Assembly (NCBI GenBank): GCA_902779265.1
Contig: CACZAY010000003.1
Coordinates: 1 to 44,848 of the forward strand
Length of the DNA stretch: 44,848 bases
Direction of reading: 5' to 3'
Origin: an uncultured Bacteroidales bacterium
GTDB lineage: Bacteria > Bacteroidota > Bacteroidia > Bacteroidales > UBA3663
This document shows, piece after piece, positions 27,763 to 44,848 of this stretch. The translations under genes were made by a program, and so were the position numbers. The first letter of the stretch is position 1, and each line of letters starts with the position of its first letter. The notes beneath the pieces are model-generated. The model ran no database searches and had not been told where the DNA came from. It saw only the letters and a program-made list of their open reading frames with translations.

Positions 27763-29418
27763 ATGGTATCAATAGATGGACTTACCGTCGAATTTGGCGG
27801 AACCACCCTTTTCAAGGATATTTCCTTCGTCATCAACGAGAAAGACCGCATCGCCCTGATGGGCAAGAACGGTGCTGGCAAATCGACGCTGTTGAAAATC
27901 ATCGCCGGCGTACGCACCCCAACGCGCGGAGCGGTCAATGTGCCCAAGGACTGCACCGTGTGCTACCTGCCGCAGCATCTGATGACCGAAGACGGCCGTA
28001 CGGTGTTCGAGGAGGCCAGCCAGGCATTCGCCCATCTCAAGCAGATGGAGGTCGAAATCGAGGAGCTGAACAACCAGTTGGCTACGCGGACGGACTACGA
28101 AAGCCAGGAGTATATGGACCTCATCGAGAAGGTTACATCGATGTCCGAGAAGTTCTACGCCATCGACATGACCCACTTCGAGGAGGATGTCGAGAAGGCC
28201 CTGCTCGGCCTCGGCTTCAAGCGCAGTGATTTCGGCCGACAGACCTCGGAGTTCTCCGGCGGCTGGCGTATGCGCATCGAATTGGCCAAGCTCCTGTTGC
28301 AGAATCCCGACGTGCTCCTGCTCGACGAGCCGACCAACCACCTCGACATCGAGTCCATCGGCTGGCTGGAGGATTTCATCATGAACAGTCCGATGGCCGT
28401 CGTGCTCATCAGCCACGACCGCAAGTTCGTCGATACCATCACTACGCGGACCATCGAGGTTACGTTGGGCCGAATCTACGACTATAAGGCCAAGTACAGC
28501 CACTATCTCGAACTGCGCAAGGAGCGTCGCGCACAGCAGCAGAAGCAGTACGAAGACCAGCAGAAGCAGATTGCCGAGGCCAAGGAGTTCATCGAGCGTT
28601 TCAAGGGTACCTACAGCAAGACATTCCAGGTGCAGAGCAAGGTGAAGTGGCTGGAGAAACTCGAGCTGGTCGAGGTCGATGAGGAAGACACATCGGCCCT
28701 GCGCCTGAAATTCCCGCCGGCACCACGCAGTGGCAACTATCCCATCATCGCTGAGGGCTGCGGCGCGGGCTACACCAATCCGCTACGCGAGGAGGACTGC
28801 ATCTTCCACAACGCCACCTTCATGGTCGAGCGTGGCCAGAAGATAGCCTTCGTCGGCCGTAATGGTGAAGGTAAATCGACGATGGTCAAGGCCATCATGG
28901 GCGAGATCCAGCACACGGGGCAGCTCACCGTCGGCCATAATGTGCAGATCGGATATTTCGCGCAGAACAGCGCTTCGCTGCTCGACGAGGAGGCCACCGT
29001 CTATCAGACCATCGACGACATTGCCGTCGGCGAAATCCGCAAGAAGATTTCCGACCTGCTCGGCGCGTTCATGTTCGGCGGCGAAGATACGTTGAAGAAG
29101 GTCAAGGTGCTTTCGGGCGGCGAACGTGTGCGTCTCTGCATGGTCAAGCTGCTTCTGGAGCCCTACAACCTGCTCATCCTCGACGAGCCGACCAACCACC
29201 TCGACATGAAGACGAAGGACATCCTCAAACAGGCGCTCAAGGCCTACGACGGCACGCTGATTGTCGTCTCGCACGACCGCGATTTCCTCGACGGTCTGGT
29301 CGAAAAGGTCTTCGAGTTCTCCGATGGCCGCGTGCGCGAGCACCTCTGCGGCGTCTATGAGTTCCTCGAAAAGAAGAAGATGGAGAACCTCCAGGAACTG
29401 GAGCGTAGCAAGAAATAA
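27763..29418 (+). CDS. ABC-F family ATPase (two ABC domains, no TM domain)
   Basis: Two Walker A sites (GKNGAGKST, GRNGEGKST), two signature motifs (FSGGWRMR, LSGGERVR) and a charged linker with QQQKQYEDQQKQI. Confidence 0.9.
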   Translation: MVSIDGLTVEFGGTTLFKDISFVINEKDRIALMGKNGAGKSTLLKIIAGVRTPTRGAVNVPKDCTVCYLPQHLMTEDGRTVFEEASQAFAHLKQMEVEIEELNNQLATRTDYESQEYMDLIEKVTSMSEKFYAIDMTHFEEDVEKALLGLGFKRSDFGRQTSEFSGGWRMRIELAKLLLQNPDVLLLDEPTNHLDIESIGWLEDFIMNSPMAVVLISHDRKFVDTITTRTIEVTLGRIYDYKAKYSHYLELRKERRAQQQKQYEDQQKQIAEAKEFIERFKGTYSKTFQVQSKVKWLEKLELVEVDEEDTSALRLKFPPAPRSGNYPIIAEGCGAGYTNPLREEDCIFHNATFMVERGQKIAFVGRNGEGKSTMVKAIMGEIQHTGQLTVGHNVQIGYFAQNSASLLDEEATVYQTIDDIAVGEIRKKISDLLGAFMFGGEDTLKKVKVLSGGERVRLCMVKLLLEPYNLLILDEPTNHLDMKTKDILKQALKAYDGTLIVVSHDRDFLDGLVEKVFEFSDGRVREHLCGVYEFLEKKKMENLQELERSKK

Positions 29419-29440
29419 GCGCCCTATTTCCGTCCGTAAA

Positions 29441-29490
29441 CAATGCCCTGTATGGAGTGTTTTGCACTCCATACAGGGCATTGCTTTTTA
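29441..29490 (+). terminator. Strong rho-independent terminator of the ABC-F gene
   Basis: A perfect 19-bp stem, caatgccctgtatggagtg / cactccatacagggcattg, with a 5-nt loop, followed by cTTTTTaTT. Confidence 0.8.
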
Positions 29491-29632
29491 TTCTATATTT
29501 GGATTATCAGTATGTCAAAGATCTTTTGTGGCGCAAAGATAAGGCATATTTCGCGCCACACCAATCTTTTGACACCTATAGTTTTGACTATACTTTGCTA
29601 AAGAGACATGAAAGTCAATGAGTAATACTATA

Positions 29633-32600
29633 TTAGTTGTATTGCTTCGATACGTTGAAAATTGAAATTGGTTCATAATCATCCTTCTGTTTATTTATAT
29701 GATTCTCTATATAGGAATCTGACCATAAAGGATGAGTCAGGATGAACTTCTTTCCGAATTTTATACCAGCTATCGTGCCATTTACAACTTGTGGAGCAAA
29801 ACCTTTGTTATCTAACATCTTGAAGATTGTGACAAATATATAGCGATGCCAATAGCTGACAGAGAAATCTATCACAGCTTTCGGATCGTGAGCCAACCTT
29901 GCCATATCAAGACCTAAACGCCAATCTAACAAATGATGTTCTTTCTGGTTAGAATAGTCTCTGATACAATCGTAGCATGAAGAGGTGCACCCCTCTTCGT
30001 GTTCCTTCGAAGTCAGTTGTTCATAGACTTCACCTCCTTCAATGAGGGGGCTTATAATAGCTTGGTATGGCACTTTAGGATATTTCCTGCCACTCAAATA
30101 GTTGCAATAACCAGCGCCATTCTCTAAGCTCTCTACGAAAAAGGCTTCAGCTTTCTGACCACCAGGTGCAATGTAAAAACCGACATTAAGTTCTGAAGAG
30201 TCAATATCCAAATAGGATGCTACAGCCTTACGCACCAGATAACCCCATGACAAGAATGCTGCTTTCACAGCGAAATTAAGTTCCCCATTAACAATTGGGC
30301 TCAAACAGAGATCTTCTCTTACCTGTTGTATAGAAATAGTCAATACACCAGTAGTTTTAGATGAAACCAAAGCATATTTTTCTTCATTGCTTACAAACAC
30401 TGATTTCTGTCTCTCTATTGAGAAACTGTCCTTGCAAACATAGTCTCCAACCCCAACTTTTCCTAGCTTATATAAATTGCCACTGTTATCATTAATCAGG
30501 TTAACTCTACCTTGCGAAGGAATCGTGTTGTTACGGATAGTCATATTGTCAACAGATGGAGCCTCATGCAATTTATCCTCACAATCCAACTTTATGTCAC
30601 TATTTGTAGAAAACCACTCAAAGCTGCCATTAAAGTCTTCTGGTTTGGCCTCATAATCGACACGAAAGCCCAATGGAGAACACACTTTGATGTTATCCAT
30701 CTGATTACCGCAGATAGGGCATTTCTCTTTTTTATCATCTATTGTGGAGTAACCACAGCGGCATTTGTTCAACAATTGTTTATAGCTATTCAGAGAGTTA
30801 GCCTTTGCATGAGGTATGGGGCCGTTACTATACTCGTAGTCAGCCATACCAACAGCACGATACACTTTCTTATCCTTAACTATTTCATGTCCAGGTGCAA
30901 AAGAATTGATAGCCATATCCATATCCCTGGTCACGACGTCCTCTGCAGGTAGTTTCTTGGGGTAACTCAGATATAAATTTCTGCTTCTTGTCGGGAATCC
31001 GAACATCGGCAGTAGTCCTGCATTGGCCAGTCTTTCGCTTAAATAATCTTGAGTATATTCGTTACTTCGGGCAATCTCAGATATCCTATCTACCAATTTC
31101 TCATAAACATCATTCAAAATCGTATGATAATTCTCATCCGAAATTTCCGTACCCTTGGTGACAACATCGATTATTCTTTCCACGTCGGCCTTATGGCTAC
31201 GTATCCATGCTTCGACAATAGCTTTGTTTTTACTATCCCAAGCATCTACCTTGCCAAAGTTTCCGTGTACACTGTCATTTTCCTGTGTATTGGATTTTAA
31301 AGCCCTATACAGAATCTCTTTGTTGACAATGCGCTCTACAATCTCGATAGTTCTTACCTCCAAATATGGGTCTTTGGGAGTATCTGAAACCATTCTATTG
31401 TACTCCTGGAAATTGGTCTGGTCGTGGCTTGACGCACTTGCGACAGTAAGAGCCAAAGACAATGCTTTCCCTCTACGACCGGCACGACCTACACGCTGTT
31501 GGTAGTTGAATCGTTGTGGAGGCACATTGCCCATCATCACAGCTGACAGGGAACCAATATCCACACCAGCTTCCATCGTTGTGGTGACACTCAGCAAGTC
31601 AATCCCTTCGACATACTTGTTTTCGTTCTCCAGAAAGATGTCTTGAAAGAGCCTTTGTCTTCGTATTGAATCTTCCCTTGATGTTTGACCGGTCATCTCT
31701 TCACAATGTAATCTGTAATTCTTGTTCTGAGAATGCAGTAGTGACAAATAATAATCATCGGGATTATTTATGTTTTCTTGTGTAAGAGTCTTCGCCTCAC
31801 CCAAACTGTGCAAACAGTTGATACAAATACCGTTGGCATGTTGCATGTGAATAGTCTTGCACCTCGGACATTCCCAATAGAGAGAACCAGCCTTGGCCTC
31901 TACAAAAGAGAGACCCTCTCCGGTCAACAGAATCTCCTCTTTAAGGATTATTCCATTCTTTCTTAAATAGCGCAGTATATCGTCCTTCTTTTCAGAAACG
32001 AATGACCTATCCCCTTTACCATAGATACGCTTTATCAAAGTACCTACAATTTGGGGAAGACTCATTCCTGGATATTTATTAGAGTAACCAGCAATCCTTT
32101 TCTTCTCGCCCAAGATTCGGATAACTGAACAAACCAATTCTTTCATTTCGCCGTCTAAATCATTGTTTGTCGGTCTAAGATATCCTAACCTCAGCTGTTC
32201 GAAAGATCCGCTCTTATTGCCGAAAATACTCATTATCTGTTCCCGCTTATTGCCTATGCGAAGATTTTTTAGATAGTTTTCCCTTGAATCATTCAAGTTA
32301 TCTTTTTCCTCCTTTTTTTCAAAGTCGAACAGTTCATGCCATATGACTTCGTTTTCTGCAGCATAAGAAGGTCTTGGTCCTGCGGGATTTATGCCTAAAG
32401 ACAACATAGTCTGGAACACTTTGTTTTCAATTTTGTCAATTTCCAAATCAGAAGAATTGAGAAAGGTATTCAATTCCTTGATTTCAGACCTTGTTGCAAT
32501 TTCGTCTTTTTCGTCGCGTATGATGTTATAATATTTTTTAAAAATCTTATCTTCTTTTAATTTTGTAACACTCTTTTTTATCCTTTCGTCACGGAGTCCA

Positions 32601-34813
32601 TTTTCTCTGTATTCTTTCAAGATATCTTTATAATCGTTTTTCTCATTGAGAGCATTCAATATCGCCCATCTAAGCATATCACGATAATGGTCGAGTTCTA
32701 TGCCAGCGGAGAGTTTGGCAGCTGCTTGTCTGCTGTCCGAGAACAGCACTAACTTGGTTTTATCCTCGTTTGCACTCTTCATGCTTCGTATCAATGCATC
32801 GGCCAGAATCTGATTCACTTTCTGCAAACCAGTGCTATGACGTCTGATAGGAGTCAAACTATTACCATCATATATTTTGTATCTCACATCACATTGAGGA
32901 CATCTTGCAGGGAACTTAGGTTCTCCTTCTCTTTGGATGTAAAGCCAATATTCACCATCTATAGAACCGACTATTTCTCCAGATGAAGAATCGTAGTTCA
33001 CAGTTTGCCAGCCCTCTTTATGCAGTGTTGTATAGTCCTCCTCGACATTGCTATTAATATGTCTTTTCCAAAGTACGCCATACGGAATGAAACCATTGGT
33101 CAGTGGTTTTTCTATGCTAAGATACTTATCAGTTTTATCACTGATGACATAACCGCCCAAGAACACATCTCCGCAGTTCTCGCAAACAAGCATATCGAGC
33201 ACACGCTTGCCACAATTGCAGATAGTTCGGGGTCGTTTGTAGAGTTTGCCTATATAACGGTCTTCAAATCTGTATTGTGCATCGACACAGTCACATTTGG
33301 AGTCTGAACAAGCCCATAATCCACTGATACTGCGGAAGAAATAGTGTGCCCTGATTGGAGATACTGCTCCACCATTTATCGTACTCTGGCAGATGATTTT
33401 TATCATCGCTTCAACCACCTCTTTTCTGTCAGCACAGGGGACTTCATTCAGTGCATTGGCTATCTTTTCTACGTCTTTAGGAATGATACCTTTAGGAGAA
33501 CTCATCGCGTATTTCAGCCAGGAGAGCAATTCGTATTTCTCAGTTATATCGTTGAAATCACGACAATGCAGAGCATCCAGCAAAGCTTTATCTGCCTGCT
33601 CGTCAGCAGTATGGGCATATTGCACCAATGCCTCAACAGGTAAAGACGCAGAGGGTTTGTTTGGTTGAGGCTGAGCGGGATTGGAAAGAATGATAAAACG
33701 TTGTTCAAAATCTGCCTTACTTAAACCGAAAAACTCAGACAGGAACTCCTTAGATTGCTCATTTTCTTCGAGAGAAGCACTCGTTGCCAAAAACTGCACC
33801 TGAGGTGAATCTGGAGCGAGCCCTAATCTATCCAATAAGATTCTAAGCAAGTAGGCCACTTCTGTACCAGATGTGCCTCTATAGGTATGCAACTCATCGA
33901 TTACCAGATGAAAGACATTATTCAGGTCTGTTTGTAACCACTTTCGAGTTTGCTCAAATATCTCCGCTTCCGTTTCTCGCATCAGCATGATATTCAGCAT
34001 ACTATAGTTGGTTATCATTATATCTGGAGCATTGTCTTGCATAGAGAATCTGTCCCACATTTCGGCTGAATCAGGCTCCATGCACGGAATGTGATACAAT
34101 AATTCTTCCTGGTCTCCATTTTTTACGGCTTTCCAATCTTCTTCCAGCTGTTTCTTTTCTGCATTCCATCTGTCCTTGCTCCTCTCTTTTGTTCCACTTA
34201 CAGGAGTCATACCTGTATAACGACCAAAATAGAATCTGTTTCCATTTCTATTTTTATCTAACCAATCCAATGCCCCAGTTCCATCGTCACGTCTGCTGTT
34301 CAGGGCTTTGCGAAGACGTATCATCTGGTCTTCGGCTAAGGCATTAAGAGGGTACAATATCATGGCTCTCATGGCCCTTGGCCGCGAGTTGCGCCAACTT
34401 TGAGACTCTTTGATAAGGTCAGCAATGACAGGCAATAGGAAACACTCCGTTTTACCAGAACCCGTTCCTGTCGTAACGACTATACTCTTTCTGTTTTTGT
34501 GTGCCTCTAGGAGAGCCGCATACTGGTGATCATACAGTTTGCGCTCATGACCAGACGGAGAGAACATACCAGAATGAACAAAATCATTCAAGTCCATAGA
34601 AACCCCTTCTTTTAGACAAAAGTCTCTAAGGCTTGCTTGCTCATGGTACTTAGGTACAAGTTCTATGATAGGAGGTTGACAGATAGTACCAGCTTCCTTT
34701 ATCAGTTCGGCGCGTTCCTGACTATATTCTTTTTGAAACAAAGGTAAGCCACTGCTTATATATTTCAAATAAGCAGTTTGTATTTCATTGAAAATATTGA
34801 TTGGATTATTCAT
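29633..34813 (-). CDS. Large SF2 (DExH) helicase fused to a DUF1998/MZB-type zinc-binding C-terminus; DruE-like
   Basis: Helicase motifs are GTGSGKT (aa 116-122), ILYPLNALAEDQ, ITNYSMLNIML, DELHTYRG (aa 306-313), TSAS, LFSDSRQAAAK and QRVGRAGRRG (aa 1106-1115). C-terminal motifs are LPMFGFPTRSR and GCTSSCYDCIRDYSNQKEHHLLD. Four further CxxC clusters are present. Confidence 0.85.
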   Translation of the reverse strand: MNNPINIFNEIQTAYLKYISSGLPLFQKEYSQERAELIKEAGTICQPPIIELVPKYHEQASLRDFCLKEGVSMDLNDFVHSGMFSPSGHERKLYDHQYAALLEAHKNRKSIVVTTGTGSGKTECFLLPVIADLIKESQSWRNSRPRAMRAMILYPLNALAEDQMIRLRKALNSRRDDGTGALDWLDKNRNGNRFYFGRYTGMTPVSGTKERSKDRWNAEKKQLEEDWKAVKNGDQEELLYHIPCMEPDSAEMWDRFSMQDNAPDIMITNYSMLNIMLMRETEAEIFEQTRKWLQTDLNNVFHLVIDELHTYRGTSGTEVAYLLRILLDRLGLAPDSPQVQFLATSASLEENEQSKEFLSEFFGLSKADFEQRFIILSNPAQPQPNKPSASLPVEALVQYAHTADEQADKALLDALHCRDFNDITEKYELLSWLKYAMSSPKGIIPKDVEKIANALNEVPCADRKEVVEAMIKIICQSTINGGAVSPIRAHYFFRSISGLWACSDSKCDCVDAQYRFEDRYIGKLYKRPRTICNCGKRVLDMLVCENCGDVFLGGYVISDKTDKYLSIEKPLTNGFIPYGVLWKRHINSNVEEDYTTLHKEGWQTVNYDSSSGEIVGSIDGEYWLYIQREGEPKFPARCPQCDVRYKIYDGNSLTPIRRHSTGLQKVNQILADALIRSMKSANEDKTKLVLFSDSRQAAAKLSAGIELDHYRDMLRWAILNALNEKNDYKDILKEYRENGLRDERIKKSVTKLKEDKIFKKYYNIIRDEKDEIATRSEIKELNTFLNSSDLEIDKIENKVFQTMLSLGINPAGPRPSYAAENEVIWHELFDFEKKEEKDNLNDSRENYLKNLRIGNKREQIMSIFGNKSGSFEQLRLGYLRPTNNDLDGEMKELVCSVIRILGEKKRIAGYSNKYPGMSLPQIVGTLIKRIYGKGDRSFVSEKKDDILRYLRKNGIILKEEILLTGEGLSFVEAKAGSLYWECPRCKTIHMQHANGICINCLHSLGEAKTLTQENINNPDDYYLSLLHSQNKNYRLHCEEMTGQTSREDSIRRQRLFQDIFLENENKYVEGIDLLSVTTTMEAGVDIGSLSAVMMGNVPPQRFNYQQRVGRAGRRGKALSLALTVASASSHDQTNFQEYNRMVSDTPKDPYLEVRTIEIVERIVNKEILYRALKSNTQENDSVHGNFGKVDAWDSKNKAIVEAWIRSHKADVERIIDVVTKGTEISDENYHTILNDVYEKLVDRISEIARSNEYTQDYLSERLANAGLLPMFGFPTRSRNLYLSYPKKLPAEDVVTRDMDMAINSFAPGHEIVKDKKVYRAVGMADYEYSNGPIPHAKANSLNSYKQLLNKCRCGYSTIDDKKEKCPICGNQMDNIKVCSPLGFRVDYEAKPEDFNGSFEWFSTNSDIKLDCEDKLHEAPSVDNMTIRNNTIPSQGRVNLINDNSGNLYKLGKVGVGDYVCKDSFSIERQKSVFVSNEEKYALVSSKTTGVLTISIQQVREDLCLSPIVNGELNFAVKAAFLSWGYLVRKAVASYLDIDSSELNVGFYIAPGGQKAEAFFVESLENGAGYCNYLSGRKYPKVPYQAIISPLIEGGEVYEQLTSKEHEEGCTSSCYDCIRDYSNQKEHHLLDWRLGLDMARLAHDPKAVIDFSVSYWHRYIFVTIFKMLDNKGFAPQVVNGTIAGIKFGKKFILTHPLWSDSYIENHINKQKDDYEPISIFNVSKQYN

Positions 34814-35621
34814 AGTTGATAGAGTTACAGAGTATTCGGTTTAGCTCCTTAACCGTCGATTTAGAGACATTATTGAACCATAGTTTGCCATCACTGCAGA
34901 TAGGCATCTGACGAGATGCCATAGTTTCAAGTTGTAACACTCTATACAGCAAAAATGGCATCGCAAATAACGGCATAACTAACAGTTTCTTGGCTCGTAC
35001 GTAAGAGCCTGTCCACTCCTGGTTGATAACTCGGCTATAACTATATGCGATGGCAAATGCATCGGGATTATACGTTTTATCAGGAATACTTTTTACGACA
35101 TATTTGTCTGGAATGACAAAATACCTCTTCATGCCGTCTATTCTCTTGGCTAATCCCTTTTCCCAGTTGCTATAATACTCCAAGTCGTTATTATCGATAA
35201 AGGATTCATCTCTAAATCCATACACTACATCCTGGATTGTTGGAAAGTGTTTCAAGATGCCTGTAGGATTAACTTTTGTCACCTTATAGTTATGAGGGTT
35301 GATAAGATTTTCTGTAAGAAATATACCCGCACTGACCTCATCGGTAAGGTAGTTTTCTGGCTTGGGATTGACATAATAAAAGTGTGTCCCATAGTCAAGT
35401 ATGAGCGATTCTGTCAAAGCATAATATCCCTTCCCTACATGATCTATCACACCACTATAGACTAGGGGCCAAAACAACGCCCACATTGGTTCTTTTCGAT
35501 TAATACCCAATCGTTGAGCCAATTCATCACAAGTCGTCTGTATTACATCCAGACTTCGTTGTTCTGAATGGCTCATCCATGTTCTAATTAGGCGTTGGGC
35601 TTCAAATAGAGAATCATTCAT
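34806..35621 (-). CDS. Hypothetical protein (271 aa), third gene of the operon; possible N-terminal winged helix
   Basis: Overlaps its neighbours by 8 nt at both ends. CDELAQRLGINRKE...SGVIDHVGKGYYALTE is wHTH-like. No other motif was found. Confidence 0.6.
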   Translation of the reverse strand: MNDSLFEAQRLIRTWMSHSEQRSLDVIQTTCDELAQRLGINRKEPMWALFWPLVYSGVIDHVGKGYYALTESLILDYGTHFYYVNPKPENYLTDEVSAGIFLTENLINPHNYKVTKVNPTGILKHFPTIQDVVYGFRDESFIDNNDLEYYSNWEKGLAKRIDGMKRYFVIPDKYVVKSIPDKTYNPDAFAIAYSYSRVINQEWTGSYVRAKKLLVMPLFAMPFLLYRVLQLETMASRQMPICSDGKLWFNNVSKSTVKELNRILCNSINYE

Positions 35622-37455
35622 CTTGCAAATAATCTTCGTAGTAGTTCTTTACATCATCAACCGTTTGCTCATTTAGCTGACTTGGTGAGAGATAACCTGC
35701 AGATTCATTAAGTGTTGGCAATCCAATCTTTGCCTGCTTGGTTGATATCCAATCAGGATTAACACATCCTATATACTGCAAGCAATTTGCATTTAATGGC
35801 ATCACATCATCCTTAGTTATGGTACACAGAATGCGCAAGTTATTTGGTAAAGCCTTGCCAGTCCCTGCAATTTTAGTGGTCAACCCACTCTGTATATCTA
35901 TCAGTGGCATCATATAATTAGGCAGGTAGGTCAGATTGATGTTTTGCAATACAAGATAATACATCTTTTCAGAGTCTTTTTCCGCCTGTTCGACAATATA
36001 AGCCAATCCATTCGTCCAAAGGTCGTCAAAAGACCGCCAACTTGCACTGACATACTCGACCAAATAACGACAGCACAAAGTAGATTGTATAATTATTTGA
36101 GCCATCTTTGCATCTGGCACCAGAAGCATTCGATAGTTGCACAATAGACTTCCAATAATGTCACAGGCATCCTCATCTTCTATTCCATTCAGGCAAAGGG
36201 TATCATCTAAAATTTTGATGAATTTTCGGTAGCTAGAACATTTAGTCTGGACTAACGATACCTCTTCCAAAGAGAAGACTGACCCGACCTGAGAGGTTTT
36301 ATAAGCAGGAAGACCCGTATGTAATACCTCTCGAACCACAGTATAATCCTCGACTATCGACTCTTTGTGCTTCTCTAATAGCTGAATACTGTTTTCCAGG
36401 GTTTTAACCTTGTCAGATTCTTGCCGAAGTAAAGATTCCAACCCCTCCAATTCAGATTGCTTCTCTTGAAGTTGCTTATCTATTATGCCTTTCTCTTTTT
36501 CATAGTTTCCCTTTTTCAGTGCTAAGTCTTGGTTAAATTGGTTATCTATAGCTTGTATTTCTTCTGCTTTCGAGCGCTTATAATCTGCCATAAAAGCATC
36601 TTGATGCTTAGCTAATGACATCTCTATAGACTCTTTCAACCAAAGGCTTTGACTTAATTCCTTTACCGTCTCATAAGGCAAAGTGAAGACATTAGTCATT
36701 GTCAATAACCGATGGATACGATTCTCTATGACATCTTCGGTCAATTGTTTTGTTACTTTAAACCTACTGCGAATCATGGATTCTACTTCACCGAAGTTTT
36801 TATTCTCAACGAGGTTACTCCATTCCTCTTTCAGGACTTTATTGAGAAACCAATCCAATAGTTGTTCATCGTTCGTAATGTCAAAACTACCAGTTTTGAC
36901 GTCATCATTAGGAACTTTGACAACAAAGAGTTTGTCTTCTACAGTGATTGTCTCTACAACATTCCTATTCCAATATGGCACAAAACGATTATTCTTCTTT
37001 GGGTCAATAAGCCAAATATATGGACCTGAAGAAACATAGCATTTTTCGTCTATATCAACAAGTCCATACTTCTCTAATAACGAATAGTTGTATTGTCCAT
37101 TATTAGAAAACGTTTCATCTATAGAAATGGCTCGCTTAAAAAATGGAGCTACGTTTCCTGCTTTGTTCCATACATAGGCACAATAGTCATTTCTATCCGT
37201 ATTTTTATTAGGCAGTACCTTTACCATAAATAGGTACTTTTCATCATCCAGTTGAGGAAAGTTGTGTGCGAAGACCTCCCCTTGGGTATAAAAAATCTCT
37301 CTTGCTTGTCTTGGCGTTAATGGCAAAAACTGACCATTAGAAAGTATGCCAACTACTTTTAATCTTGCATGTGGAGAGCCCCAAATACGAGATACATAGC
37401 CTATTACATAGTCGTCATCATAATTAAACTCTGGTGTATAGTCATTGTTTATCAT
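35614..37455 (-). CDS. Hypothetical protein (613 aa), second gene of the operon; central coiled coil and a possible degenerate AAA+-like C-terminal domain
   Basis: ATGA overlaps the upstream gene. Heptad-rich, charged region at aa ~283-370. The C-terminal pattern is RMLLVPDAKMAQ ... YYLVLQNINL ... LRILCTIT. Confidence 0.6.
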   Translation of the reverse strand: MINNDYTPEFNYDDDYVIGYVSRIWGSPHARLKVVGILSNGQFLPLTPRQAREIFYTQGEVFAHNFPQLDDEKYLFMVKVLPNKNTDRNDYCAYVWNKAGNVAPFFKRAISIDETFSNNGQYNYSLLEKYGLVDIDEKCYVSSGPYIWLIDPKKNNRFVPYWNRNVVETITVEDKLFVVKVPNDDVKTGSFDITNDEQLLDWFLNKVLKEEWSNLVENKNFGEVESMIRSRFKVTKQLTEDVIENRIHRLLTMTNVFTLPYETVKELSQSLWLKESIEMSLAKHQDAFMADYKRSKAEEIQAIDNQFNQDLALKKGNYEKEKGIIDKQLQEKQSELEGLESLLRQESDKVKTLENSIQLLEKHKESIVEDYTVVREVLHTGLPAYKTSQVGSVFSLEEVSLVQTKCSSYRKFIKILDDTLCLNGIEDEDACDIIGSLLCNYRMLLVPDAKMAQIIIQSTLCCRYLVEYVSASWRSFDDLWTNGLAYIVEQAEKDSEKMYYLVLQNINLTYLPNYMMPLIDIQSGLTTKIAGTGKALPNNLRILCTITKDDVMPLNANCLQYIGCVNPDWISTKQAKIGLPTLNESAGYLSPSQLNEQTVDDVKNYYEDYLQDE

Positions 37456-40184
37456 AGCCTTGTTTGTTTTAATATTCGCAATGTGATATTATTCTCATTT
37501 TGTTGGGGTTGGCCTAATGTAAGCATTTTGCTCCATCTTGTCAAAGTAGGTTCCTCGCTGACAATAGGCTTTTGTGGAATGGAGGAGAAATCAAGTCCGA
37601 CAATGCCGTCTTGTGGTTCATTACATTCCCTTGGATCTTGACTTTCCCACTTGCTGGATTTATCAACATACCAACGGTTGCTATCTCTCATCCAGACCCT
37701 CGCCGTAGGAAGAGAATCGACAAGTTTTATTTTAATTTCCTTACAGCCACTAATTAATATAGAATGGAGGCCTGCCGACAATGTATCAAGTGATATGTCA
37801 ATACATTCTTTGTTGCCTTGGTCTTCTACTACTAGCACATTATCGTCCATATCTATAGCTGACTCGCCCTCTGTTTTTTCCGAATTTTTAAGGTTGCGAA
37901 CAGCAATACATGTTGCTAATACTTGGAATACTTTTGTCTGAGTCCAAGATTTGATTGATTGAATCTCAAAATCGCTGATTATTTGTCCCTCAGAATTCCG
38001 CATTGCATTCCCATCTTTGTCTTTACGAATATGACGAGAAAGGACGCCTACATCACCTTTCAAATCGATTAGTGATGTCTCATGTGCCCTATGTAAAAAA
38101 ACTGTAGTCGTTAAGTTTTCTACACCAATAGTTGATAATAGATTTTGGAATCGTTTTAGTTTTCCAGATAAATCCAATTCCTTGATAACATGGCTTAACG
38201 AAGTGTTATTATTTTCAGTTTTATTTATGACAGATGGCATAATGATACTACCTAAAATAGCAGATGCTTCGTTGTATATTCTACCATATCGCATACTTTC
38301 TATGGATACAGTTGAACAATTGTAAAGAATTTTGTTTTCTGCTTTTATTGCAGGATTTGCTTTTTTCTCTTTTCTTTGCTTGTCAACTGCTATGCAGGAG
38401 GCTAACACTTGAAACACTTTGTCTGGTGTCCAAGATTTAATAGGACTGGCTTTATAATCAAAAACAGGGTCACCTTTTCCATCTAGTATTGCATTACCAT
38501 GTACATCTTTTTGAGCCTGCCTTGTGATTAATATGATAAGTCCATCCTTATTTACAATAGAAGCCTCTTTAGCCCAATCCAAAACCAACTTTGCGGAAAA
38601 CTGTTCTATTCCCAAAGACGCTAATACATCTTGATATTCTTTATCTCGAGTCATCTCCTTGACAACTCTATTAAGACTGATTGTATCTTTCCTTTCTACG
38701 CAGTATGGCTTGAAATAACAATCAAAGATTCTTGATGCCTCATAATATATTTCACTATAGTTGATATTATGATTCAACTCATGCTTATTTCCTTCATCTT
38801 TATAATTTGTTTGACTATTAGTTTTTATGACATTAGAAGCATATTTAAAAATCTTGCCATCGATTATTACATGGACAGGACTCTTCAGTTGGAGAATAGG
38901 AGCACCTCCAACACCTTGTAGATATGTCATATATCCGACTCTTAAACCTCCAACTAACTGGAACAGTTTATCTTGTACAGAGTAGAACTCCTGAGTATGT
39001 TCTTCATACTGTATCTTATACAACCGCAACTCAGATGTACTCAAAATTAAGTCACCACAAATAGTTGGTATTTGATATGAAGGTAATTGACCGACAAACA
39101 AGATAAGGAGTCCAGGTTGCTCTTTATCATCAATATATCTTACTTCTTGCCAATAACCTTCTGGCGACTGTTGAAATACTAGAATGTTTGGTCTTTTAGC
39201 GTGATAGCTCTCAGATTTTAATTTCTTTAAAGTAAGAGACTGAATACTAATTCTTTCTTTTAAAGTTAAATTGTTTGTATATCTTATTTCTAGACAATAA
39301 TTACCTCTATCCTCCATTAAAAATAAAGAGAATTGCCCTTGGGGTAGTTTAGAATCCTTACCGGAAGTACTCTTGTATTCGCCATTCCATCTTAAATAGA
39401 AGCTAAATACTTGCTGAAAAATGTTGGCCGTATCACAGTTAGAAAGGACAGTTTGACCATGGCTGGTATTACACCATCTATTGATATCACTTTCCTTAAT
39501 AATCCTTCTAAAGTCCAACAAAGAAATAACTTCTTCTGGATAAATGTGTTTGTGGGCAAAGAATCCCGCAATGTACTTTAGGTCTTCTGTTGTAAAAATC
39601 CTTTCTGCATATTTCAATGGATATTGGACATACCGACCATATCCCGATTTTTGCACACATTGCACAGAACGATAGTCATAGTTTATATCTTCTTCGTATG
39701 CGTTACAATAATCATAAAAAGTTTTCCAAACGTAGTCTTGATAACGAATAAACCAACGTTCGATATCTTGTATTTCGCAGTTAAGTACTTGTGCTAATCT
39801 ATCTCTGTAGTTCTTTTCTGTTATTTCTTCATCTCTTTCACGCTTTGTCGCTGCATATATTTGAATGGCAACTACTGCCATTTCAAAACTCACTATAGAA
39901 TGACCTTGTTGCTCTAAAACTTGTTCGTAGCTTCCACTACTATAATTGCCATAGATGCAATATTGCCGAATCGCATTTTTCAATTGCGACTCGGTTATAG
40001 CCTGACTTTTACAATAATCATCAATAAACGATTGATCAATCACAGGCCAAGAGGTAGACCCAGTGATTGAATCCTCAAAGTGTTCTCCGAAATCTACAAC
40101 AATTTCTAACATACTTTCCATGGTTGTATATTCTCCAATAATAGCCTCAAATGTGAAATATGACCTTAAGTCATCATAAATCAT
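37452..40184 (-). CDS. Hypothetical protein (910 aa), first gene of the operon; contains an internal ~130-aa tandem module duplication
   Basis: A long AT-rich ORF with no recognisable catalytic motif. Modules at aa 476-601 and 633-762 both end in IKSWT..KVFQVLA.CIAV. Confidence 0.6.
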   Translation of the reverse strand: MIYDDLRSYFTFEAIIGEYTTMESMLEIVVDFGEHFEDSITGSTSWPVIDQSFIDDYCKSQAITESQLKNAIRQYCIYGNYSSGSYEQVLEQQGHSIVSFEMAVVAIQIYAATKRERDEEITEKNYRDRLAQVLNCEIQDIERWFIRYQDYVWKTFYDYCNAYEEDINYDYRSVQCVQKSGYGRYVQYPLKYAERIFTTEDLKYIAGFFAHKHIYPEEVISLLDFRRIIKESDINRWCNTSHGQTVLSNCDTANIFQQVFSFYLRWNGEYKSTSGKDSKLPQGQFSLFLMEDRGNYCLEIRYTNNLTLKERISIQSLTLKKLKSESYHAKRPNILVFQQSPEGYWQEVRYIDDKEQPGLLILFVGQLPSYQIPTICGDLILSTSELRLYKIQYEEHTQEFYSVQDKLFQLVGGLRVGYMTYLQGVGGAPILQLKSPVHVIIDGKIFKYASNVIKTNSQTNYKDEGNKHELNHNINYSEIYYEASRIFDCYFKPYCVERKDTISLNRVVKEMTRDKEYQDVLASLGIEQFSAKLVLDWAKEASIVNKDGLIILITRQAQKDVHGNAILDGKGDPVFDYKASPIKSWTPDKVFQVLASCIAVDKQRKEKKANPAIKAENKILYNCSTVSIESMRYGRIYNEASAILGSIIMPSVINKTENNNTSLSHVIKELDLSGKLKRFQNLLSTIGVENLTTTVFLHRAHETSLIDLKGDVGVLSRHIRKDKDGNAMRNSEGQIISDFEIQSIKSWTQTKVFQVLATCIAVRNLKNSEKTEGESAIDMDDNVLVVEDQGNKECIDISLDTLSAGLHSILISGCKEIKIKLVDSLPTARVWMRDSNRWYVDKSSKWESQDPRECNEPQDGIVGLDFSSIPQKPIVSEEPTLTRWSKMLTLGQPQQNENNITLRILKQTRL

Positions 40185-40225
40185 CCTTTGTGCACTAACA
40201 CGCAGGAAAGTTCATAAAATACCCT

Positions 40226-40233
40226 GGGGGGGG
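40226..40233. repeat. Homopolymeric G8 (C8 on the coding strand) tract in the 81-nt spacer upstream of the operon
   Basis: tGGGGGGGGt lies 42-49 nt upstream of the ATG at 40184, in an otherwise AT-rich context. Confidence 0.9.
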
Positions 40234-40265
40234 TAAAATCTTTCTTGAAGTTATGCACAACCCTT

Positions 40266-41537
40266 TTAGTCCGTCAACAGCCATTTCCAGATGGGAATGA
40301 CCTCAATGGATGCTTCGCCGATGGGGATGGTCTCTTCTTCATCCATGGTAATGATGAGCATTCGGTCCAGGTCGATGGCCTTGGAGAGCTTTTGCAGGGC
40401 TCCAACTTCACGTTCGCGGGTTTCGTAATCGAGTAAACTGTAGGATACCTGTATGGCCAGTTTCTCGTTGGGCACAAAGAAATCGACCTCGACAGACTTG
40501 TTGTAGTAATAGAGATTATCTTCGTCGAGGGCGCCATAACGCTTCTTCAACGCGATGGCGACCAGGTTTTCGAGCAATTTGCTCTTAGGGTCAATAAGGT
40601 AATTGTTCAGGAGGCCATTGTCGCAGAAATAGTGTTTACTGTTGACAATACGCTCGGAGAAGCTATCGACATAGTTGGTCAGACGGAAAACCAGGAATGC
40701 CTCGTTCATGTAACTGAGGTAGTCGGTCACCGTGTTGCGGCTCACCTTGTCACCCGTAGATTTAAGGATATTGGTCAGACGAGTCAAGGTAGTAGGTTGC
40801 ATAACGCTTTCGGCCAGTTTCTTGGTCAACAGGCGGATGATACCTCCAGAGCGGATCTCGTTGCGAGCAATGATGTCGCCCAATACGATTTTCTGGCAGA
40901 GCCAGTTGAGCCACTCCTGCTTATCCATGCGGTTAAAAGTCTCGGCAAAACCGCCATACTGGAAGTAGTCGGTAAACAGGGAGCGTACTTGTGAACGTTG
41001 GCTGGTCAATGCCCAATTAGCGTCCAATTCGATGCCTTTGTAGCGCAGATACTCGCCGAAGGAAAAGGGATAAATATTGCGCACGATGAAACGTCCACCA
41101 AGGGTGGTAGCAATCTCGCGACTGAGCATCTTGGCATTGCTGCCAGTCACCATGACCTGGTAGCCCGTATCGGCCAAGCGGCGCACGAATTTCTCCCATC
41201 CGTCGATAATCTGTATTTCGTCAAGATAGATGACAGGCTTGCGGTCGTGATAAAGCTCTTCATAACTTTGTATGATGCCATCCAGTTCGCTTAACTGGAA
41301 GATATCGAGGCGGTCATCCTCAAAATTGATATACAGAATATCTTCCTTGGCCGACAGCCCATCGGAGATGCGCTGCTGTATATGCTGGTAGAGGATGTAC
41401 GACTTACCTGCACGTCGGAGACCAACGAGCACATAATTGCCCACTGGTTCGAAGTGGACGTCACGCCTTATCAGAGGTAGTTGCGGGATTCGCTCCTGAT
41501 TTTTCAAGAGTATTGACTTGATGGTATCTTTATTCAT
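40266..41537 (-). CDS. COG1373-type AAA ATPase (AAA_14 + DUF4143 architecture), second copy in the window
   Basis: Walker A GLRRAGKS and Walker B VIYLDEIQ are present. The C-terminal VEVDFFVPNEKLAIQVSYS is PD-(D/E)xK-like. It has the same strand as the four-gene operon and lies directly upstream of it. GC content is intermediate. Confidence 0.85.
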   Translation of the reverse strand: MNKDTIKSILLKNQERIPQLPLIRRDVHFEPVGNYVLVGLRRAGKSYILYQHIQQRISDGLSAKEDILYINFEDDRLDIFQLSELDGIIQSYEELYHDRKPVIYLDEIQIIDGWEKFVRRLADTGYQVMVTGSNAKMLSREIATTLGGRFIVRNIYPFSFGEYLRYKGIELDANWALTSQRSQVRSLFTDYFQYGGFAETFNRMDKQEWLNWLCQKIVLGDIIARNEIRSGGIIRLLTKKLAESVMQPTTLTRLTNILKSTGDKVSRNTVTDYLSYMNEAFLVFRLTNYVDSFSERIVNSKHYFCDNGLLNNYLIDPKSKLLENLVAIALKKRYGALDEDNLYYYNKSVEVDFFVPNEKLAIQVSYSLLDYETREREVGALQKLSKAIDLDRMLIITMDEEETIPIGEASIEVIPIWKWLLTD

Positions 41538-41599
41538 GACCGTTTATTTTATTTCTCCATACAGGGCATCAAATAGGAAATATTGCTCTGTATGTAGTG

Positions 41600-41640
41600 C
41601 AAAAATAGTAAATATATGCTCTCTATACAGCGCAAAGATA
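41600..41640 (-). promoter_or_regulatory. Tandem duplicated promoter modules of the ATPase (-7 boxes TATCTTTG and TATTTTTG)
   Basis: The reverse complement reads TATCTTTGCGCTGTATAGAGAGCATAT ... TATTTTTGCACTACATACAGAGCAATAT. A third CTGTATGGAG motif copy lies at 41555-41569, before the ATG. Confidence 0.45.
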
Positions 41641-41799
41641 TTCTTTTCCGGCGAAATATCCAAATTTTCAGCCTCATAATCTTCATTTTTTTTCAACTTA
41701 AGATTGTTCCCTGCCGATAGGACATAATTATTGGCAGAAAGCTATTCCTCAAATCCATCATATTACCAGTCACTTTGTGGTGTTCATCAAAAGATTTTT

Positions 41800-41928
41800 T
41801 TAGTTGTATCGCTTCGAGATGTTGAAAATTGAGATAGGCTCATATTCATCTATCAGTTGCTTAAAGTGATTGTTAAAGTCCAATAAAAAATCGGATGCCA
41901 AGAGAGACTTGACACCCGGTTCGATGAA
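41800..41928 (-). pseudogene. Relic of the 3' end of a second, diverged DruE-like helicase gene
   Basis: The minus-strand translation ...SDFLLDFNNHFKQLIDEYEPISIFNISKRYN* compares with the intact helicase C-terminus ...SDSYIENHINKQKDDYEPISIFNVSKQYN*. The first 52 nt from the stop codon match 29633-29684 at 44 of 52 positions. An in-frame stop lies at 41929-41931. Confidence 0.75.
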
Positions 41929-41990
41929 TTAAAAAATAGAAATACACACGGTACAGACGAAAGGACAGGGGGATGGGGCAGGTAGCCGCT

Positions 41991-44495
41991 TTAGAGCGTC
42001 TTCAGCTTGATGCTGGCAGCCTTCAGCTTCGAGTCGGCCGTGGCGCGCACGGTGACCTTGCCGGCCTGACCGCGTTTGCTGCGCAGGACGACCTGAAGAG
42101 TGCCGTCGTAGAGGCGCTTGGTCGTGACGTCGGGCGTAAAGAGTTCGCTGGTGTAGTGGTCGCCGTTGTCGAGCGCATAGAGCGTGGCTGCACCATCGAC
42201 CGTGATCGAGACGAGCGACGAATCAGCCGCAACGGTGCGTCCCTTGCTATCGACGGCGCGCACGGTGAGGTATTGCAGGTCCAGGCCATCGGCCACGAAA
42301 TCGGGCAGGGTGAACGGCTTTCCGTCGGGACCCAACTGCTCGGCCTCAATGCGCAGGGCAACAGCCTTGCCGGCCGTCTGGATGGTGTGACGGGCCACCT
42401 CGCGGCCGTCGTTGTAGGCCACAGCGGTGAGTGTGCCGCCCTTGCCGTAGTCAATGTCTTCCCACAGGATCATGTTGCGCTGGGCGGCATCGGCCACATT
42501 GTTCTTTTTACGGCCAATGCTCTTGCCGTTGTAGATGAGCTCGACCTCGGCGGCATTGGTGAAGGTGTAGAGCGACTGGCGGCTGCCCTCGGCGAAGGTC
42601 CAGTTGTTCGAGAGCTGCTGCTTGCCGACCTTCACGTCGTTCCAATCGACGGTCTCGCCCTTGCCGTCGCGCACACCGATGTGTACGACAGGTTCATCGG
42701 CCGCAAAAGCACTCTTGATGAGGTAGGCCTGCGGGTAGGTCTCGAGCGTGTGGCGGAAGTAGCTGTAGTTCCAGCCCTTCTTCGGCCAACCGTTGCTCTC
42801 GCCCCAATATTCGATGGCACCCCAATAGGCAAGGCCGACGCTGCGCTCCTCGGGCATGTTCCAGAGGCAGTTGAGCAGCCATTCGGTCTGCGCCTCGCTC
42901 TGGAAGAGGATCATCCACGGGGCATGCTTCAGATAGTCGTTGTAGCAGTTGCTCTGGTAGTTGAACGACGATACCTCGCTGACCTGTGCCAGTTCGGGCG
43001 GAACGCGGTAGGTGTTGAAGTCGGGGGTGCCGCGCTGGGCTCCGGCGCGTGCGGGGAACATGGCGACGGTGGTGGGTCGCGTAGCATCGTAGCGCTTCAG
43101 CATCTGGTCGAAGATGCGGTAGGTCGTGACGCCCCAGTCGTTGGTGTCGTAGCCGCTCCAGTCGCTGCGCGTCTGCAATTCGTTGCCGAGGCTCCAGAGG
43201 ACGACGCTCGGGCAGTTGCGGTCGCGCTTCACCCACTCCTTGATGAGGCTTGGCCAAAGGGTCATGAACGGCTTGCGGCCGCCCCAGTAGTCGTTGTCGC
43301 TCCACTTGTCTATAAGTTCATCGACGATGAGCAGGCCCACGCGGTCGGCGATGCGGGTGAAAGATTCGCTGTAGGGGTTGTGCGAGCAGCGGATGCAGTT
43401 GTAGCCGAAGCTCTTCAGCTGGCGCATCTCACGCTCGATGGCCTTGTCGAACGAAGCCACACCGAGCGCACCGAGGTCGTGATGGTTGGCGATGCCCTTG
43501 AGCAGCACCTTGCGGCCGTTGAGCTTGAAACCGAAGTCCTTGCCGTATTCGATGCTGCGGATACCGAACTCGACACGTTGGCTGTCGGCCACCATGCCAT
43601 CGGCCATAAGCACGACTTCGGCGATGTAGAGCTGCGGCGCGTCAATGTCCCACAGGGCGGGAGTCTGGATTTTGGCCAATGGCATTTTCACCTCGACCAC
43701 GCTGGCCTTCGTGTGGTCGGGCATTCCGGCGGTGAGGTCGGCGGCCAATGCCCCATCGGGCGCAAACAGGCGGCACTGCAACGAGACATCGTCGTGCTTC
43801 TGCCATCCGGCCACCTCGACCTCGACCTGCACGTCAGCCTCGTTGGCCGACACCTGCGGCGTGTGGACATAGACACCGTGGCGGGCGATGTGGGTCGGAT
43901 TCTGCACCTTGAGATAGACGTCGCGGAAGAGGCCGCCGCCGGTGTACCAGCGCGAACCGTTCTTCTTGCCGGTGTTGGCATAGACGGCGACGACATTGGG
44001 CGCGTCGTAGCGCAGCTGGCGGGTCACATCGGCCTCAAAACCCACGTAGCCGTATTCGGACGAGGCGACCTTGTGGCCGTTCAGATAGACGTCGCCGTAG
44101 TACATGATGCCGCCGAAGTCGAGCAGCACCTGCTTGCCGCGCCAGAGGGGGTCGGCCTCGAACGTCTTGCGGTACCAGCCTTCGCTCATCTCCTTGAAGC
44201 CGCGTGCGCCGCCGGCAGCCTCGACCCACGGCTGTTCGAACTGGAAGTCGTGCGGCAGGTCGAGCGTGCGCCATTGGCCATCATCATAATCGGGCTTGAT
44301 TACGGCCGATGCATCGGCGGCCCCGAACTGGAAGCGCCAGCCGAAGTTGAAAAGCTGTTTCTGACTTGTGGCGAATGTGGCCAATGGATAGTTGCGGGCC
44401 ACCTTGCTGTCTTTCTTCTCGACATACTGCGCATTGACGCCGATGGCCGATGATGCCATCAGCAGAGCGGCGAGTGCGTAAAGTTTTCTTATCAT
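41991..44495 (-). CDS. Glycoside hydrolase family 2 (beta-galactosidase-like), secreted
   Basis: The ORF was trimmed to MIRKLYALAALLMASSAIGVNAQ. GH2 patterns are present: DDGQWRTLDLPHDF, GGIMYYGDVYLNGHKV, NCIRCSHNPY and VVLWSLGNE. Confidence 0.85.
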   Translation of the reverse strand: MIRKLYALAALLMASSAIGVNAQYVEKKDSKVARNYPLATFATSQKQLFNFGWRFQFGAADASAVIKPDYDDGQWRTLDLPHDFQFEQPWVEAAGGARGFKEMSEGWYRKTFEADPLWRGKQVLLDFGGIMYYGDVYLNGHKVASSEYGYVGFEADVTRQLRYDAPNVVAVYANTGKKNGSRWYTGGGLFRDVYLKVQNPTHIARHGVYVHTPQVSANEADVQVEVEVAGWQKHDDVSLQCRLFAPDGALAADLTAGMPDHTKASVVEVKMPLAKIQTPALWDIDAPQLYIAEVVLMADGMVADSQRVEFGIRSIEYGKDFGFKLNGRKVLLKGIANHHDLGALGVASFDKAIEREMRQLKSFGYNCIRCSHNPYSESFTRIADRVGLLIVDELIDKWSDNDYWGGRKPFMTLWPSLIKEWVKRDRNCPSVVLWSLGNELQTRSDWSGYDTNDWGVTTYRIFDQMLKRYDATRPTTVAMFPARAGAQRGTPDFNTYRVPPELAQVSEVSSFNYQSNCYNDYLKHAPWMILFQSEAQTEWLLNCLWNMPEERSVGLAYWGAIEYWGESNGWPKKGWNYSYFRHTLETYPQAYLIKSAFAADEPVVHIGVRDGKGETVDWNDVKVGKQQLSNNWTFAEGSRQSLYTFTNAAEVELIYNGKSIGRKKNNVADAAQRNMILWEDIDYGKGGTLTAVAYNDGREVARHTIQTAGKAVALRIEAEQLGPDGKPFTLPDFVADGLDLQYLTVRAVDSKGRTVAADSSLVSITVDGAATLYALDNGDHYTSELFTPDVTTKRLYDGTLQVVLRSKRGQAGKVTVRATADSKLKAASIKLKTL

Positions 44496-44533
44496 TGTGT
44501 TTATGGGTGAAAGGGTTAGTATGATATTGGCCG

Positions 44534-44541
44534 CAAAGATA
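44534..44541 (-). promoter_or_regulatory. -7 box (TATCTTTG) of the GH2 gene
   Basis: Lies 39 nt upstream of the ATG at 44495. Confidence 0.5.
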
Positions 44542-44625
44542 GTCAAAAAAATTGAAAAATCCTATCCGGCACGCGCGAAAAGGGGCTTTTTCGGCCGAAA
44601 TTTTGGCCAAGTCGAAAATAAGGCG

Positions 44626-44633
44626 TATCTTTG
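44626..44633 (+). promoter_or_regulatory. -7 box (TATCTTTG) upstream of der
   Basis: Lies about 145 nt upstream of the der ATG, implying a GC-rich leader. Confidence 0.4.
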
Positions 44634-44777
44634 CGGCCGATATTGCTCCATCGGATACCTAACCCATAGCCCCAGGGGCTGGCTCAACCACCGCGACGGT
44701 TGGCATTGGCCGGAAACCCCACGGGCAGAAAATAGGCTGGTGGGCAAGAACAAATAATAATTCATAAATAATAGAAA

Positions 44778-44848
44778 ATGGGAAATTTAGTAGCTATTGT
44801 GGGTCGTCCCAATGTGGGCAAATCGACCCTTTTCAACCGCCTTACGGA
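44778..44848 (+). CDS. der: Ribosome-associated GTPase Der/EngA, N-terminal fragment (runs off the window)
   Basis: MGNLVAIVGRPNVGKSTLFNRLT is the canonical Der G1 motif. Confidence 0.85.
   Translation, partial: MGNLVAIVGRPNVGKSTLFNRLT

Follow-up and report, generated by a model that had tools for sequence, protein, structure and literature searches.

A relic of a second Druantia-type DruE helicase gene beside a resident ATPase gene in an uncultured Bacteroidales bacterium

We analyzed a window of 44,848 nt (contig CACZAY010000003.1 of assembly GCA_902779265.1, positions 1 to 44,848) from an uncultured Bacteroidales bacterium. The locus is bordered on one side by a conserved host gene for an ABC-F ATPase (27763-29418, plus strand), recognized by Pfam and by its orthologues in the genus. 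On the other side lies the host gene for a GH2 glycoside hydrolase (41991-44546, minus strand), which has the Pfam GH2 domains in order, shares 97% nucleotide identity with the closest congener, G033, and is inverted with respect to ABC-F in comparison with five congeners. The low-GC stretch between them (29420-41990) contains a Druantia-like operon and an AAA_14/DUF4143 ATPase gene. The ATPase gene (40266-41537, minus strand) was assigned using Pfam and matched the PADLOC candidate PDC-S01 (E 4e-96); DUF4143 has been placed among the PD-(D/E)XK families (PMC3424549). The operon, an inserted cassette at about 29604-40234 on the minus strand, with junctions set by comparison with L173, comprises genes for 910-, 613-, and 271-aa proteins and for a 1726-aa DruE helicase. 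The helicase corresponds to PADLOC DruE2/DruE4 (E=0) and the 910-aa protein matched DruF weakly, while the 613- and 271-aa proteins were assigned to no family by Pfam and PADLOC.

The assembly is correct at this locus. Three other assemblies match the junction of GH2, relic, and ATPase sequences described below along 701 nt with 100% identity, and a single 54-kb scaffold covers ABC-F, the cassette, the ATPase gene, GH2, and der, up to ackA. Misassembly was therefore ruled out.

Between the ATPase and GH2 genes, the minus strand of 41800-41934 translates as F*FIEPGVKSLLASDFLLDFNNHFKQLIDEYEPISIFNISKRYN*. Within it, blastn, BLASTP, and hhalign identified positions 41800-41871 of the minus strand as the last 23 codons and the TAA stop (...NHFKQLIDEYEPISIFNISKRYN*) of a lost DruE-type helicase gene. 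The counterpart in blastn is the 3′ end of the intact resident DruE gene (29633-29704, minus strand), whose 1726-aa product has the C-terminus ...NHINKQKDDYEPISIFNVSKQYN*. The two segments aligned without gaps, with 57 of 72 nucleotides identical (79%), and the E-values of 7e-14 in the pairwise search and 3e-12 against the whole window rule out chance similarity. The original prediction had recognized a relic of a second helicase 3′ end here and had called for a formal alignment; this alignment is significant, and the predicted 44 identities in the 52 nt counted from the stop codon were also reproduced by blastn. At the protein level, the relic peptide matched residues 1704-1726 of DruE, the last 23, with an E-value of 1e-8 (BLASTP). 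When a 12-sequence profile of the DruE C-terminus was used as the hhalign target, relic residues 19-42 fell on the final 24 profile columns (279-302 of 302) with a probability of 89% and an E-value of 2.4e-6, in agreement with the other two methods. The DruE end of L066 and L186 was 84% identical to the relic over 58 nt. Thus, the similarity is significant and collinear with the true C-terminus, ending at TAA. Because it begins about 72 nt upstream and ends exactly at the stop codon, the segment is best read as a relic of coding sequence and not as a repeated site.

These alignments establish the homology of the relic and also its limits. No DruE similarity was detected in any frame beyond the 72 nt. 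The HPLWS motif, located about 30 residues before the C-terminus in all of the 120 DruE relatives among the matches listed, was missing from the relic frame and from every frame checked. The segment contains neither a helicase core nor an open frame with a start codon. Elsewhere in the 2.8-Mb genome, it was found only at the end of the resident DruE gene, and it was absent from all 38 congeners. The C-terminal 23-24 residues of the Druantia DruE helicase (PADLOC DruE2/DruE4; YprA-family helicases, PMC12458937) thus align end to end with the relic, which differs from DruE in that just 72 nt are left, without helicase domain, HPLWS, start codon, or function. Judged by its sequence, 41800-41871 is a genuine pseudogene fragment, a presumably non-functional fossil of a second DruE 3′ end, and no function is expected of it. 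It reflects the usual decay of a gene at a variable defence locus and is not a working element, and its importance is local. A short terminal fragment beside an intact paralogue or allele is comparable to the remnants that erosion of accessory-system genes leaves, for example of toxin-antitoxin genes (PMC13617665); the likeness is one of kind only.

The 3′ end of the GH2 gene limits the relic on its outer side. A predicted intrinsic terminator of GH2 occupies 41882-41918 of the minus strand, as detected by a terminator scan and RNA folding. It consists of an 11-bp stem (41892-41918) followed by a U-run (41882-41891), reads AUUUUUUAUU after the stem, and lies 73 nt past the GH2 stop. The hairpin folds at -17.2 kcal/mol (z -3.5), and a GC-containing hairpin with a U-run 3′ of a gene is the arrangement of a rho-independent terminator. 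DruE similarity was not found in 41882-41918 in any frame. The terminator falls within the open frame 41800-41928, which had been taken as a helicase relic over its full length, and is not helicase-derived; that reading holds for 41800-41871 and fails for the outer part. Because the outer open frame is the GH2 terminator hairpin, the fossil measures just 72 nt and abuts a host terminator. The relic adjoins this terminator because GH2 is inverted here. The 3′ untranslated spacer of GH2 occupies 41919-41990 (minus strand), and the similarity to G033 stops at 42004, 13 nt within GH2.

On the inner side, the relic stop is followed by a tail (41711-41799, minus strand) that is presumably the downstream end of the lost cassette, with an approximate inner boundary within 41711-41750. 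Blastn of this tail gave no match to L066, L186, or the resident DruE tail, and it matches no other DruE flank. A weak alignment with L173 starts again around 41745-41710. The intergenic stretches 3′ of the two helicase ends are dissimilar except for a hairpin-arm motif, CTGTATGGAG, and an 11-mer.

The CTGTATGGAG motif was examined around the ATPase gene. The ATPase leader (41538-41710, minus strand) is conserved together with the ATPase in the Druantia-free metagenome contigs L086 and L173. Its predicted promoter consists of a -33 element (TTTG, 41661-41664) and a -7 element (TATCTTTG, 41633-41640), the latter being the caaagata box that had been noticed earlier on the relic side. Three CTGTATGGAG-type arms are located in the leader at about 41617-41632, 41584-41604, and 41555-41569. 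The arms, 15-18 nt in length, lie downstream of the conserved Bacteroidetes-type -33/-7 promoter, and the same arm forms the terminator hairpin 3′ of the gene. In a comparison of the leader regions (window 41555-41640, L086:3090-3200, and L173:230-340), the middle arm looked inverted between this genome and L173. The arms could act as an operator or as an attenuator with alternative pairings, with a fold z-score of only -1.7.

The other copy of the motif lies at the left edge of the island. The segment 29431-29603 (minus strand) is 93% identical to L173:1723-1894 and is the original 3′ flank of the ATPase gene, including a -7-like box (29531-29541) and a hairpin (29441-29483). In the terminator scan and fold, the hairpin has two arms forming a perfect 20-bp stem (-39 kcal/mol), and it is a terminator shared with the convergent ABC-F gene. 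Within 29436-29545 of the minus strand, about 50 nt separate the -7-like box TATCTTTGCGC from the perfect hairpin that follows it, and the box is conserved at 93% downstream of the ATPase in L173. A small RNA, antisense to nothing annotated, could be encoded at 29436-29545 of the minus strand; Rfam gave a DUF2693 RNA match of 26.7 bits (E 0.002) in this region, far under the gathering score of 81.

The distribution of the motif was compared among related loci. The 15-mer CTCCATACAGGGCAT occurs genome-wide only at the two island edges, and a 21-mer form, searched with at most 2 mismatches, is likewise confined to them, which excludes an origin as a genome-wide REP-like element and shows that the two edges are genuinely linked. 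L086, whose ATPase is 87% identical in amino acids, lacks Druantia genes and has the order <-GH2, Big_2 ->, leader ->, ATPase ->, hairpin, <-ABC-F; its leader and the one in this genome share 79% identity over 131 nt, and its hairpin is located 8 nt past the ATPase stop. L173, a short metagenome contig of 1.9 kb with an ATPase 98% identical in amino acids and 93% in nucleotides, has GH2, 92 nt, the leader, the ATPase gene, about 97 nt, and then a stretch 93% identical to 29602-29431, including the TATCTTTGCGC box and the hairpin; neither Druantia genes nor the relic are present on it. The motif was not found around more distant ATPase homologues (82-83% and 46% identity), and it is therefore not a general feature of AAA_14 ATPases. 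Neither the motif nor the ATPase follows DruE in L066, L186, or L082-L085. These comparisons show that the motif is a property of the ATPase gene, carried both in its leader and in its terminator.

This assignment changes the earlier picture of the island. Recombination through a conserved segment joining the helicase 3′ end and the ATPase leader had been proposed, but the motif is the ATPase gene's own, being present on both sides of the gene in L086 and L173 and absent after DruE in L066 and L186. An ATPase ORF is likewise not missing from the left edge, as had been thought, because the motif copy there is part of the existing ATPase's 3′ flank, displaced 10.6 kb by insertion of the cassette relative to L173. 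We also dropped the candidate in which the left edge had once held a further ATPase leader, deleted via the 15-mer repeats, since there is no collinear similarity past the motif and the full flank follows the ATPase in L173. The ATPase is not a regular partner of the cassette: among 80 DruE loci of GTDB representatives, only 1-2 have an AAA_14 ATPase downstream of DruE. The sole clear case of DruE followed by AAA_14/DUF4143 in these 80 loci was L125:4867-6490 (Odoribacter sp. Z80), where an ATPase with 46% identity to the present one lies about 360 nt past DruE in the same orientation. No ATPase orthologue with more than 53% identity was found in the 38 congeners. The ATPase gene is a resident accessory gene and not a part of the Druantia cassette.

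The insertion junctions of the present cassette were shown by the alignment with L173. The cassette, about 10.6 kb, lies between the ATPase stop and the ATPase 3′ flank and replaces about 80 nt. It carries little flanking DNA: about 50 nt before the first ATG, beginning at a C8 run, and about 29 nt past the DruE stop. The C8 run (G8 on the plus strand; 40226-40234) is located exactly at the left insertion junction, and the sequence shared with L173, ...TCAAGAAAGATTTT, stops at 40235. Homology to the sister cassette L186, which sits between SprA and a Crp-like gene, is restricted to the genes (40149-39106 at 76% and 37697-29632 at 80%). The first cassette gene encodes 910 aa here versus 520-540 aa in L082-L085 and L186, and the extra 1.4 kb (37697-39106) has no counterpart in L186. 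Pfam analysis of the island proteins and inspection of the L173 alignment revealed no integrase, terminal repeats, or target duplication. Because the cassette is placed between the resident ATPase gene and its terminator, its expression probably relies on the predicted ATPase promoter.

We compared the relic with the resident DruE and with L066, the closest foreign allele, whose DruE shares 89% amino acid identity over the C-terminal 477 aa. Over the 72 sites, 51 are the same in all three sequences and 1 differs in all three. The relic agrees with L066 and not with the resident gene at 6 sites, with the resident gene and not with L066 at 6 sites, and the resident gene agrees with L066 and not with the relic at 8 sites. 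The star-like 6/6/8 pattern indicates a separate allele, because a recent duplicate would show almost no sites common to the relic and L066 against the resident gene. In the ATPase gene, 43 of 424 third positions (10%) differ between this genome and L173, so the time since the empty-site state appears too short for 6 changes on the resident branch in 72 nt. Differences between the relic and the resident gene are distributed 3/3/9 by codon position; this excess at third positions (9 of 15) agrees weakly with a divergence that took place when the two genes still had a coding role. From these 72 sites and one outgroup lineage, we conclude that the relic probably derives from a third allele of the same rare subclade, approximately 80% identical to the resident gene and L066, and not from the resident gene itself. 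Among the best 120 DruE matches listed, the relic-type C-terminal ending was found outside the cluster of this genome only in the P0003 cluster. An intact second cassette upstream of the ATPase was not found in 39 genomes of the genus or in the 80 DruE loci of GTDB representatives. An intact ancestor of the relic was detected neither in metagenome scans with a 22-mer of the tail and a degenerate DruE-end pattern nor in a related-locus search with a single protein.

The surroundings of the locus vary across relatives. GH2 is co-oriented with ABC-F in G033, G026, G020, G003, and G014, with a gap of 0.2-17.7 kb, and is inverted here and in L173, where its 3′ end faces the ATPase leader. The ABC-F/GH2 junction can thus not be taken as the ancestral insertion site. 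The ABC-F 3′ flank differed in 14 of the 14 congeners fetched, and the similarity to G033 breaks just inside ABC-F as well as inside GH2. In G033 (L039:6351-8537), an EcoRI-like adenine methylase and a GmrSD_N/HNH nuclease directly follow GH2; in G026 (L040:1607-4444), a TOTE-type AEP primase-helicase lies about 9 kb past GH2. A simple inversion of GH2 and the island relative to G033 did not fit, since congeners are not alike in their der, C49-like, and C33-like neighbours. The der gene is divergent and located upstream of GH2 (41991-44848 compared with L039, L040, L041, L042, and L044), and its neighbours vary among the congeners, suggesting that the whole area is prone to rearrangement.

The locus is a defence-island hotspot, as had been suggested, by its conserved flanks, by its variable and partly defence-related cargo, and by the close relatives L173 and L086 without cassette and relic, with the caveat that G003 and G014 have housekeeping genes as inserts and not islands. 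Defence hotspots of the E. coli pan-genome (PMC10121019) likewise combine conserved flanks, varied cargo with defence genes, and empty variants. In contrast to those hotspots (PMC10121019), the locus has no mobile-element signature or integrase, its flanks are rearranged, as seen in the inverted GH2, and some of the congener inserts are housekeeping genes.

Sequences of two distinct DruE alleles thus flank a single resident ATPase gene: one allele is intact and inserted downstream of it, and the other survives upstream as 72 nt. We consider it probable that the relic is the remainder of a lost cassette with a separate DruE allele beside the resident ATPase, and that the present cassette is a separate insertion. 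The locus is built around the AAA_14/DUF4143 ATPase gene, a resident with a promoter-bearing leader and a terminator hairpin of its own, both containing CTGTATGGAG-type elements. An earlier Druantia cassette would have ended just upstream of the ATPase leader and would have been deleted or replaced up to 72 nt from its stop, leaving a remnant that abuts the GH2 terminator. The four genes of the present cassette are a separate insertion, in which about 10.6 kb came to lie between the stop codon of the ATPase and its 3′ flank. The original proposal that a related cassette formerly ended beside this locus is borne out to this extent, with a different allele, whether that cassette stood in this lineage or in that of a donor. 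We infer the completeness of the lost cassette, its place (this lineage or the donor of the segment), and the order of events. Two visits of one rare cassette subclade would be a coincidence, and one rearrangement or import of a more intricate kind could account for the arrangement just as well.

Other origins of the relic were weighed against the same observations. If it were a second copy of the resident DruE end that has since decayed, resulting from tandem duplication of the ATPase and cassette or from messy integration and then deletion, one acquisition would suffice, which is more parsimonious than two; the copies are indeed direct repeats bracketing the ATPase-cassette unit, and at 15/72 they diverge by little more than the estimated maximum neutral expectation. 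We regard this duplication as unlikely, as the sites are star-like, with 6 common to the relic and the foreign L066 against the resident gene, third positions are in excess, the sequences past the two stop codons are unrelated, and the flank at the left edge belongs to the 3′ side of the ATPase and is not a second leader. A similarly small chance was given to hitch-hiking of the fragment as the truncated end of an imported segment (the GH2 3′ end or the ATPase module), in which case a cassette never stood at this site. The breaks in the similarity to the 97%-identical G033, one 13 nt into GH2 and one immediately within ABC-F, favour such an import, together with the rearranged state of the locus across the genus and the GH2-ATPase adjacency of L173 without the relic. 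However, the donor arrangement was not found, and a cassette ending upstream of the ATPase leader is still needed somewhere; the import differs from the preferred account, a lost cassette with a separate allele, only in the place of the deletion.

That the 72-nt repeat is functional, as an att-like excision site, a small ORF, or a regulatory RNA, is extremely unlikely. The direct repeats do bracket accessory genes and a short open frame is present, but at 79% identity the longest exact run is about 12 nt, leaving no identical core as in att direct repeats, and no integrase, transposase, or other recombinase domain was detected by Pfam in the five island proteins. Moreover, the similarity ends exactly at the stop codon, and Rfam returned only sub-threshold matches and no family at threshold. 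A second DruE tail was found neither downstream of 37 other loci nor in the 10-kb flanks of 5 loci, and the segment is absent from the 38 congeners.

As the probable remnant of a lost cassette, the relic is direct physical evidence of Druantia-type cassette turnover at one locus of an uncultured Bacteroidales bacterium that probably lives in the rumen or gut. Together with the empty-site contigs, it gives base-level junctions of a gene-only defence cassette that lacks an integrase and repeats of its own and brings hardly any flanking DNA. In the corrected island, the ATPase and its motifs form a resident framework and GH2 is inverted, which matters for annotating and testing this divergent Druantia system. 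A far more speculative idea, to which we attach very little probability, is that the ATPase gene, with palindromic CTGTATGGAG-type elements on both sides, serves as a docking platform that repeatedly captures promoter-less Druantia cassettes on one side or the other and drives their expression; if this were true, the two visits by one rare subclade would reflect targeted capture and not coincidence. Among the DruE loci collected, L102, L103, L105, and L117, 56-60% identical to the gene of this bacterium, occurred in bins labelled Escherichia coli, Oscillospiraceae, or Lachnospiraceae and are probably mis-binned.
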